Of a stretch of 64,000 nucleotides of DNA, positions 45,971 through 46,850 are shown piece by piece. The first letter of the stretch is position 1. The number at the start of each line of letters is the position of its first letter. The notes under the pieces are model-generated. The model was not told the origin of the DNA, ran no database searches, and saw only the letters and a list, made by a program, of their open reading frames with translations. This stretch comes from Escherichia coli (GTDB lineage: Bacteria > Pseudomonadota > Gammaproteobacteria > Enterobacterales > Enterobacteriaceae): NCBI RefSeq assembly GCF_024502345.1, contig NZ_JALDNN010000001.1; one strand, written 5' to 3'. Made by a program: the position numbers and the translations under genes.

Positions 45971-46107
45971 ATTGCGCTCCTGATTGTTGCAGGTAGTGTC
46001 TCTCTTCGAAGCGGATAAGTCAAAAACATATATGGTTTAACGAATGTGTATGTGCAGAGGAAGGTAATAGGTGTGAATTAAGCGTTGGCTATTCATTTGA
46101 AAGGAGG

Positions 46108-46206
46108 TCTGAATCAGGACGTAAAAAAACCGACTTTGCGTCGGTTTTTTACTTTCCAGCCCAGAGTTGGTGGCTCTGGCTGGAGTGAGAATGCCCACAT
46201 CTAACG
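46108..46206 (-). ncRNA. agr repeat unit 1 (AgrA/AgrB-type antisense sRNA, probably agrA)
   Basis: ~100-bp unit with terminator hairpin aaaaaaaccgactttgcgtcggtttttt, repeated at 46342-46441; the poorer match to the dinQ leader. Confidence 0.5.
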
Positions 46207-46341
46207 GTTCAATACTATTAGCCAGTGGCTAACATTGCAAGCGTTAGCGATTTCTTCAGCTGGAGAAGGGACAGTTTGCTATACATGTTGGTGAAAGAGG
46301 ATTTATATACTTTCATCGGGTCGCTGCCGTACCAGGCTTTG

Positions 46342-46441
46342 TCCGAATCCGGATGTAAAAAAACCGACTTCGCGTCGGTTTTTTTACTGTTCAGCCCTGA
46401 GTTGGTGGCTCTGGCTGGAGTGAGAATGCCATCATCTAACG
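46342..46441 (-). ncRNA. agr repeat unit 2 (probably agrB, antisense regulator of dinQ)
   Basis: Second copy of the unit; its ggcattctcactccagcc segment is near-perfectly complementary to the dinQ leader (46603-46633). Confidence 0.5.
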
Positions 46442-46502
46442 CATCAATGCTAATACCATACTGAAACTATTGCAAGGACATGCTGGTTTTATAACCTGAA
46501 TA

Positions 46503-46522
46503 TACTGTATGATTATCCAGTT
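46503..46522 (+). promoter_or_regulatory. LexA (SOS) box upstream of dinQ
   Basis: TACTGTATGATTATCCAGTT fits CTGT-N8-ACAG. Confidence 0.6.
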
Positions 46523-46713
46523 AGCTCTGAGGCATTTTCACTCTGGTAATGCGCATAAACGCTTTCAAAGTCCTGGTCAGAAGTACGGGTGGTGCCGTTA
46601 ACTGATGCTCTGGCCGGAGTGAGAATGCCATTATCTAACAATAGGGCATGCACCGTGACAGGCAGTGGATGAGTAAGCGGATGCATTCTCACTCCATCGC
46701 ATGGAGAAAACGG

Positions 46714-46797
46714 GTGATTGATAAAGCAATCATCGTTCTTGGAGCGTTAATTGCGCTGTTGGAACTGATCCGCTTTCTGCTTCAGCTTCTGAACTGA
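46714..46797 (+). CDS. dinQ: SOS-induced type I toxin peptide DinQ (27 aa)
   Basis: GTG-initiated ORF translating to (M)IDKAIIVLGALIALLELIRFLLQLLN, single TM helix; GGAG upstream. Confidence 0.75.
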   Translation: MIDKAIIVLGALIALLELIRFLLQLLN

Positions 46798-46850
46798 TAG
46801 CGGAAACGTAATTAAGGGCTAAGAGCACACTACTCTTAGCCCTTTAACAT

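Follow-up and report, generated by a model that had tools for sequence, protein, structure and literature searches.

The dinQ-agrAB locus, which encodes a toxin-antitoxin system of type I, was described in 2013 in Escherichia coli K-12, where two agr genes were reported together with an 'AgrAB repeat' inside dinQ, the complementarity being 25/31 for agrA and 30/31 for agrB (PMC3567139). LexA operators and a GTG-initiated peptide of 27 aa were described in the same work, the operator at dinQ with its heterology index, and the two small RNAs (sRNAs) were suggested to be 'tandemly duplicated', with agrA 'partly degenerated' (PMC3567139). T1TAdb places AgrA between dinQ and AgrB (PMC8594479). Here we analyse the counterpart of this locus in a stretch of 64,000 nt of contig NZ_JALDNN010000001.1, from E. 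coli assembly GCF_024502345.1 (hereafter the window), and propose that the Agr gene that serves as the working antitoxin of dinQ differs between E. coli lineages.

Transcription of the Agr RNAs, processing of the dinQ mRNA at +44, its cleavage by RNase III and the toxicity of DinQ are known from experiments in K-12 (PMC3567139; PMC5066626). In the full-length K-12 RNA, element 1 (U16-C28) of the 5' untranslated region (5' UTR) pairs with element 2 (G94-G106), and the Shine-Dalgarno sequence (SD; G184-G187) is hidden in a hairpin by element 3 (U167-U178). Removal of 44 nt leads to pairing of element 2 with element 3 and opens the SD, as seen in translation data and by selective 2'-hydroxyl acylation analysed by primer extension (SHAPE). 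AgrB bound to G88-A119 re-closes the SD and forms an RNase III substrate, while AgrA does neither (PMC5066626).

The dinQ-agrAB locus of the window

In the window, the interval between arsR and gor is the chromosomal dinQ-agrAB locus, a toxin-antitoxin system of type I that comprises dinQ, the SOS-regulated gene of the toxin, and two genes for Agr antisense RNAs. The region (880 bp) lies between arsR (45617-45970, minus strand) and gor (46851-48203, minus strand), the whole segment spanning 45617-48203, and its identity follows from an alignment with the K-12 counterpart (96% column identity), from its presence in 5,422 of 5,426 complete E. coli genomes and from the RefSeq annotation of dinQ in this region of other genomes, K-12 included; the arsR-gor synteny is likewise that of annotated K-12 and other genomes. 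We found here a GTG-initiated DinQ peptide, Agr genes on the opposite strand with Rho-independent terminators, a LexA operator, ~31-34 nt of near-perfect antisense complementarity and, in silico, four 5' UTR elements with the mutually exclusive pairings 1:2, 2:3 and 3:4. The locus is therefore already known, and its three-copy repeat, LexA box, 27-codon GTG open reading frame (ORF) and 13-nt inverted repeat were all published for K-12 in 2013 and 2016.

Two direct repeats of ~115 nt carry the agr genes (46107-46150 against 46341-46384, 91% identity; 46145-46220 against 46380-46455, 88%; combined alignment from ~46107 to 46240 against 46341 to 46476). Three copies of a 33-nt core are present, at 46173-46205, at 46408-46440 and, in the dinQ leader, at 46607-46639; the 20-mer ctggctggagtgagaatgcc is exact in both repeats and has one mismatch in the leader (ctggcCgg...). 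The 64-kb window holds no further copy of the core except an inverted one at 46687-46697. An extension of the third copy beyond the core was attempted and did not give a convincing alignment. The Rfam model AgrB (RF02891) matches the minus strand at 46121-46204 with 107.2 bits and at 46355-46439 with 91.9 bits (gathering score 40). A first-pass annotation, made from the letters of the window, had proposed a dinQ/agr locus here, with two direct repeats, a strong hairpin in each, a third copy in the leader of a 27-codon GTG ORF matching DinQ and a LexA box upstream of that ORF, and had named an alignment with the K-12 arsR-gor region as a check; the 96% alignment, the synteny, the Rfam matches and the DinQ and LexA results given below bear out all of these points.

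The two Agr copies and their match to the dinQ leader

The features on which the comparison of the two copies depends are the following.

46121-46204, minus strand: agr copy 1 (repeat 1), arsR-proximal, positional orthologue of K-12 agrB, with flanks identical to those of K-12 agrB
46212-46240, minus strand: inferred promoter of agr copy 1 (-35 TTGCAA 46240-46235, 17-nt spacer, -10 TAGTAT 46217-46212)
46355-46439, minus strand: agr copy 2 (repeat 2), dinQ-proximal, positional orthologue of K-12 agrA, with flanks matching those of K-12 agrA
46447-46475, minus strand: inferred promoter of agr copy 2 (-35 TTGCAA 46475-46470, 17-nt spacer, -10 TAGCAT 46452-46447), conserved with K-12
46607-46638, plus strand: Agr target (G88-A119) in the dinQ leader, the third repeat copy, including element 2 (46613-46628) and the variable, putative specificity segment (46623-46632)

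The annotated order in K-12 is gor-dinQ-agrA-agrB-arsR, and this order and the flanks together make repeat 1 the orthologue of agrB and repeat 2 that of agrA. The sequences of the variable segment are distributed differently in the two strains:

K-12: dinQ leader GAGAGTTCTT; arsR-proximal copy (agrB) the same as the leader; dinQ-proximal copy (agrA) GATAGCCATC
Window: dinQ leader GAATGCCATT; arsR-proximal copy GAATGCCCAC; dinQ-proximal copy GAATGCCATC

Over the 33-nt core, copy 2 differs from the leader at two positions (one C.A mismatch, one G.U wobble) and copy 1 has four mismatches, so that 29/33 positions pair. We calculated for each copy the energy of the duplex and a net binding to its own +44 RNA, which includes the cost of unfolding both RNAs, with K-12 AgrB and AgrA as the calibration pair:

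Window repeat 2: duplex -59.5, net binding -37.2 kcal/mol
Window repeat 1: duplex -53.7, net binding -19.9 kcal/mol
K-12 AgrB (active in experiments): duplex -59.6, net binding -37.7 kcal/mol
K-12 AgrA (inactive in experiments): duplex -44.1, net binding -24.0 kcal/mol

Measured against this pair, the copy in the agrB position is predicted to be at least as poor as K-12 AgrA, and that in the agrA position as good as K-12 AgrB. Probably, then, the cognate antitoxin in this strain is the dinQ-proximal copy and the mismatched one the arsR-proximal copy, the reverse of K-12, with the variable stretch acting as a specificity segment of at least four alleles and the two Agr genes allowing the leader to change safely. 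The first-pass annotation had given repeat 2 one fewer mismatch than repeat 1, had called it the likelier functional antitoxin, AgrB, and had suggested co-folding of each repeat with the leader. The mismatch count needs correcting, since over the core there are two fewer (2 against 4); repeat 2 is indeed the better partner, both by mismatches and in the calculated energies, and only the name fails, repeat 2 being the agrA orthologue.

Two other accounts of the copies have to be weighed here. According to the first, which we consider unlikely, both copies are redundant antitoxins in this strain and the four mismatches, of which one is a G.U wobble, are tolerated. It would agree with the duplex energy of copy 1, well above that of K-12 AgrA, with the promoter-like hexamers and terminators kept in both copies, and with the lowering of full-length dinQ RNA by both sRNAs in K-12 (PMC3567139), but in net binding copy 1 falls below K-12 AgrA, for which neither binding nor repression was seen in vitro, and a hairpin at its 5' end covers the variable segment. 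According to the second, the arsR-proximal copy, as the true agrB orthologue, is still the working antitoxin, as in K-12, and its extra mismatches are unimportant. This account is favoured by its place as the positional orthologue of K-12 agrB, which is active in experiments, and by a higher Rfam score (107 versus 92 bits); we nevertheless hold it very improbable, because activity in K-12 followed complementarity and not position, and complementarity is reversed here, and because in other strains with the leader allele of the window, such as L012 and L013, the arsR-proximal copy has six mismatches. The Rfam model gives near-equal scores to K-12 agrA and agrB (106 and 108 bits) and is no measure of function; as it cannot separate the two, the higher score of repeat 1 was left unused as evidence of function.

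Each repeat holds a hairpin of the form A-run/CCGAC...GTCGG/T-run, and the folding energies of the two minus-strand agr RNAs (84-85 nt) are -34.7 kcal/mol (z = -6.1) and -29.5 kcal/mol (z = -4.7), terminator hairpins being visible in the folds; besides its terminator hairpin, copy 1 forms the small hairpin at the 5' end by which the variable segment is masked. The inferred promoter of copy 1 agrees with the 'consensus like -10 and -35' described for the K-12 agr genes (PMC3567139). Consensus terminator and promoter scans did not detect the agr terminators, the agr promoters or the dinQ promoter, because A/T-extended stems and hexamers with 8/12 matches lie outside the rules of these scans; the agr terminators were assessed by folding and the promoters by eye. 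Weak Rfam matches (plus-strand AgrB, Spy779816 and a 23.8-bit match over the dinQ leader) were judged echoes of the terminator or of the shared core. Other gathering-level Rfam matches in the window, at 30724-30837 (minus strand), 36616-36687 (minus strand), 927-1008 (minus strand) and 757-830 (plus strand), are to GadY, ES205, naRNA4 and a tRNA.

Alleles of the dinQ leader across E. coli and Escherichia

Sixty genomes were sampled evenly down the similarity ranking, 26 E. coli loci were fetched, and five Escherichia loci were added from a scan of species-representative genomes; alleles were counted as exact allele-specific 36-mers among the 5,426 genomes. The better agr match is given for the 30 sampled loci with a retained dinQ leader.

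W (window type), GAATGCCATT: 1,910 genomes (35%); better agr match dinQ-proximal
K (K-12 type), GAGAGTTCTT: 1,682 genomes (31%); better agr match arsR-proximal
T, GATAGTCGTC: 418 genomes; better agr match dinQ-proximal
C, GAATGCCCAC: 248 genomes; better agr match arsR-proximal
agr::dinQ fusion, no promoters: 813 genomes (~15%); better agr match none

The sole exception among the 30 loci is that of E. whittamii (T allele), in which the copies tie (-59.2 versus -59.0). In all 30, at least one Agr copy differs from the target by no more than 3 mismatches. The dinQ mRNA is almost invariant except for target nt 105-113, nucleotide diversity (pi) being 0.315 over 46626-46635 against a background of ~0.03, and the same variable segment is also polymorphic in both agr copies. 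In two comparisons the agr pair is shared and the leader differs: L013 has leader W and L014 leader K, and the window has leader W and its closest relative, L001 (99%), leader C. Among 20 distinct haplotypes, the best duplex within a strain averages -59.5 kcal/mol, against -53.2 +/- 1.2 with shuffled leaders. None of the 5,000 shuffles did as well as the real leaders; since the sampled strains are related, this is not a true probability.

The alleles are not confined to E. coli. Allele T is present in E. albertii, with one agr copy, and in E. whittamii, with two, and allele W in Escherichia sp. E1V33, with one; the alleles are therefore old or have been exchanged between species. The genome scan gave no record named E. 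fergusonii, E. marmotae or E. ruysiae, which, given its strict pattern, does not establish absence. The seven non-Escherichia records of the contig scan comprise six chance matches and one likely contaminant, a contig of 424 bp labelled Acinetobacter haemolyticus (NZ_OVCN01000051.1; L020) with an E. coli-type agr gene (104 bits), which probably reflects contamination of the assembly.

Differences linked to the alleles lie just outside the repeat (AATAGGG versus AATGAGA), and leader alleles therefore move by recombination between strains. We also considered that the dinQ-proximal agr of the window had converted the adjacent leader to its present allele, and rejected this, because that copy reads CATC and not CATT and because the linked differences point to inter-strain recombination.

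Could the segment simply be unconstrained, its matching being a product of common descent, of linkage and of occasional gene conversion between the repeat copies, and not of selection for specificity? Its pi of 0.16-0.32 does resemble that of a neutral relic of gor between the agr copies (0.2-0.4; see below), the three copies are linked within 500 bp, and strain kinship inflates the significance of the permutations. Yet the remainder of the dinQ 5' UTR is near-invariant, identical agr pairs occur with different leaders (L013/L014; window/L001), each leader matching one copy, alleles W and T are common to other Escherichia species, and 0 sampled strains with intact promoters are without a copy within 3 mismatches. 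We regard neutral polymorphism as quite unlikely.

Two further observations concern the target. The C.A mismatch between dinQ C96 (46615) and positions 46181 and 46416 is retained in almost all sampled strains and species, which may reflect separate constraints, those of the 1:2 pairing in dinQ and of the Agr stem. In the O157:H7 strain NE122 (L007), the dinQ target is GAATACCATT and the best Agr copy has 3 mismatches (-52.8 kcal/mol, the weakest in the sample); for this strain a far more accessible SD is predicted, already in the +1 RNA (0.65).

Fusion loci and single-agr loci

In 813 genomes, including sequence type 131 (ST131) and LF82, the body of agr is joined in register to the dinQ leader. 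Lost in this fusion are the promoters of both agr genes and that of dinQ, together with the LexA box, and dinQ is probably silent in it. The dinQ ORF of the fusion loci L004 (ST131, 920-1100) and L006 is intact or carries L15Q, which is the ST131 form.

A different rearrangement, like the fusion a product of the repeats, is found in ~13% of genomes, which are without one unit of 235 bp and retain a single hybrid agr. Such loci adjoin arsR in L003, L016, L032 and L033 and arsC in L005, L017, L035 and L036, and the surviving gene combines the arsR-side terminator flank with the dinQ-side promoter flank. In L004, L005, L006, L017, L035 and L036 it is arsC, not arsR, that adjoins the dinQ locus; compared with the window and K-12, their ars operon is inverted or rearranged.

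Weighing the evidence

Taking these results together, we propose, with a probability of roughly 0.55, that the locus carries a polymorphic specificity segment with at least four matched alleles, some of them cross-species; that the working agr switches by lineage, AgrA, 'degenerate, non-functional' in K-12, being the cognate antitoxin in about half of E. coli and the second agr representing a spare specificity; and that ~15% of strains (ST131, LF82 and others) are without a regulated dinQ through a repeat-mediated fusion. In this scheme Agr positions ~7-16 (9-10 nt) and the dinQ target would act as the specificity segment, and two Agr genes of unlike specificity would let the dinQ leader switch allele by recombination without escaping control. 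The proposed swap of the cognate paralogue by allele and the promoterless fusions draw on sequence comparison and thermodynamic prediction.

Several points weigh against this proposal, besides the kinship of the sampled strains. The allele counts are marginal and give no joint haplotypes, and the allele-to-position rule therefore rests on 30 loci; since leader alleles move by inter-strain recombination, hitch-hiking could add to the association. Copy 1 could retain partial activity, given that 29/33 of its positions still pair, and in L001 net binding does not clearly separate the two copies (-32.5 versus -29.8). Kinetics, Hfq and the abundance of the RNAs do not enter the energy calculations, and the agr promoters, read by eye, lie below the threshold of the scan tool.

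The dinQ gene and its leader switch

The remaining parts of the toxin gene are as follows.

46503-46522, plus strand: putative LexA operator, TACTGTATGATTATCCAGTT, the same as the K-12 operator, overlapping the dinQ promoter (-10 TATGAT, 46508-46513)
46520-46848, plus strand: dinQ primary transcript, +1 at 46520, processed +44 5' end at 46564 (numbering transferred from PMC5066626)
46532-46547, plus strand: element 1, which pairs with element 2 (16 bp) in the +1 fold, the inactive form of the published model (PMC5066626)
46683-46697, plus strand: element 3, containing the anti-SD, which either pairs with element 2 and leaves the SD open or closes the SD by pairing with it
46701-46706, plus strand: element 4, with the true SD GGAG at 46703-46706, 7 nt before the GTG
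46714-46797, plus strand: dinQ ORF, GTG start, 27 codons plus stop, MIDKAIIVLGALIALLELIRFLLQLLN, a single-transmembrane toxin
46814-46844: hairpin terminator common to the convergent dinQ and gor, published as the putative dinQ terminator (PMC3567139)

The encoded peptide has the same sequence as DinQ of K-12 in RefSeq and scores 54 bits against the NCBIfam equivalog toxin_DinQ (NF041472; cut-off 30). The LexA operator is unique, no second match being present in the window. A 59-aa ORF at 46513-46692 (minus strand), antisense to the dinQ leader, has a counterpart labelled 'hypothetical protein' by the Prokaryotic Genome Annotation Pipeline in L001, L011, L015 and L031 and is probably spurious.

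The published switch is reproduced in silico from the sequence of the window. The primary transcript folds with a minimum free energy of -125.5 kcal/mol (z = -5.8); the +1 RNA is predicted to form the long 1:2 stem and a CUCCAU/AUGGAG hairpin at the SD, and the +44 RNA the 13-bp 2:3 duplex. The mean unpaired probability of the SD GGAG is 0.02 in the +1 RNA, 0.34 in the +44 RNA and 0.03 in the +44 RNA with the Agr site blocked, and the closed SD hairpin is found in both Agr:dinQ dimers upon co-folding. If the K-12 model applies here, LexA would repress dinQ, as published for K-12; the full-length mRNA would be untranslated, with element 1 on element 2 and element 3 on the SD; loss of the first 44 nt would free element 2 for element 3, opening the SD for synthesis of the 27-aa membrane toxin; and the first 32 nt of a constitutive minus-strand Agr RNA would occupy the element-2 region, re-closing the SD hairpin and creating an RNase III substrate.

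The 13-nt inverted repeat finds its place in this switch. The first-pass annotation had noticed the self-complementary pair ggagtgagaatgc/gcattctcactcc and supposed that it sequesters a GGAG ribosome-binding site. The pair is real, 46616-46628 and 46683-46695 being complementary at 13/13 positions, and its 5' arm does begin with GGAG; that GGAG (46616-46619), however, lies 95 nt before the GTG, and the functional SD is at 46703-46706; no ORF that begins shortly after 46619 codes for DinQ. Formation of the pair raises the predicted accessibility of the SD from 0.02 to 0.34, and SHAPE and translation data show that duplex 2:3, which this pair represents, opens the SD (PMC5066626). With the GGAG so far upstream and the SD opened by 2:3, the pair is therefore activating, and its supposed role in hiding the ribosome-binding site is hardly credible.

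Origin of the duplicated block

One more element lies between the agr copies.

46280-46332, minus strand: relic of gor coding sequence, 53 nt, aligning to gor 47066-47118

Its local alignment score is 61, against 17.5 +/- 2.4 (maximum 28) for shuffles, and it is highly diverse between strains. In E. albertii (L019), a relic lies just before the terminator of the single agr, upstream of it, with the same right-hand junction, and the end with the gor stop codon is kept. These features fit one old tandem duplication of a ~790-bp block [agr-dinQ-gor 3' end] followed by deletion of the upstream dinQ, which gives a finer form to the 'tandemly duplicated' suggestion of 2013; we did not find the relic mentioned in that paper (PMC3567139). 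On the reverse complement of the E. albertii locus (~833-1006), upstream of the relic, where the lost dinQ would be expected, there is an ORF of 57 aa with a transmembrane-like end (PPKLIAMIIGLIILVTLLRK). As a DinQ-like toxin this ORF is unsupported, having no NCBIfam or Pfam match.

Discussion

Our results suggest that K-12 is unrepresentative of its species at this locus, its own allele being present in 31% of complete genomes and the window allele, with the other agr paralogue, in 35%. If so, naming the antitoxin 'AgrB' by position, as is done in annotation pipelines, in Rfam and in the style of T1TAdb, would mislabel about half of strains, and in work on SOS-induced persistence or ultraviolet sensitivity in strains other than K-12 the gene deleted would be the wrong one. 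A regulated dinQ appears to be missing from important clinical lineages, ST131 among them. We found no earlier report of allele classes, role swap or fusion in the open-access literature, so that neither the change of cognate Agr with the leader allele nor the fusions without promoters seem to have been described; the allele swap is a modest and testable addition to a known locus. The locus is also a compact natural system in which changes of specificity in an RNA toxin-antitoxin pair can be followed.

How does this locus compare with its relatives? (i) In tisB/istR-1, an SOS-induced type I system of E. coli, sequences are unrelated and the antitoxin is not duplicated. (ii) In the zor/orz and ibs/sib families, several toxin and antisense paralogues coexist and a short, differing recognition segment restricts repression to the cognate pair. 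The two systems differ from the present one in that each antitoxin has its own toxin gene, whereas here one toxin gene is accompanied by two antitoxin genes, and in that the alternatives are here alleles segregating within a species; copy numbers of zor/orz have been surveyed (PMC11264685). What tisB/istR-1 does share is LexA control, an inert primary transcript activated by 5' processing, a divergent trans-acting antisense RNA and RNase III, as compared in PMC3567139. (iii) The dql genes of Enterobacteriaceae follow the same four-element logic in the 5' UTR (PMC5066626), but differ in their peptides and genomic sites, the peptide of the window scoring 14.9 bits on the DqlB model (cut-off 35). 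(iv) The dinQ-agrAB locus of K-12 occupies the same arsR-gor site with the same two agr copies and leader copy (PMC3567139, PMC5066626), and the DinQ peptide, the LexA operator, elements 1, 3 and 4, the Agr body and the terminators are identical. The differences reside in the Agr target, GAATGCCATT here and GAGAGTTCTT in K-12, in the 1:2 and 2:3 duplexes, 13 and 10 bp in K-12 and longer here (16 and 13 bp), and in the position of the best-matching Agr, arsR-proximal in K-12 and dinQ-proximal in the window.

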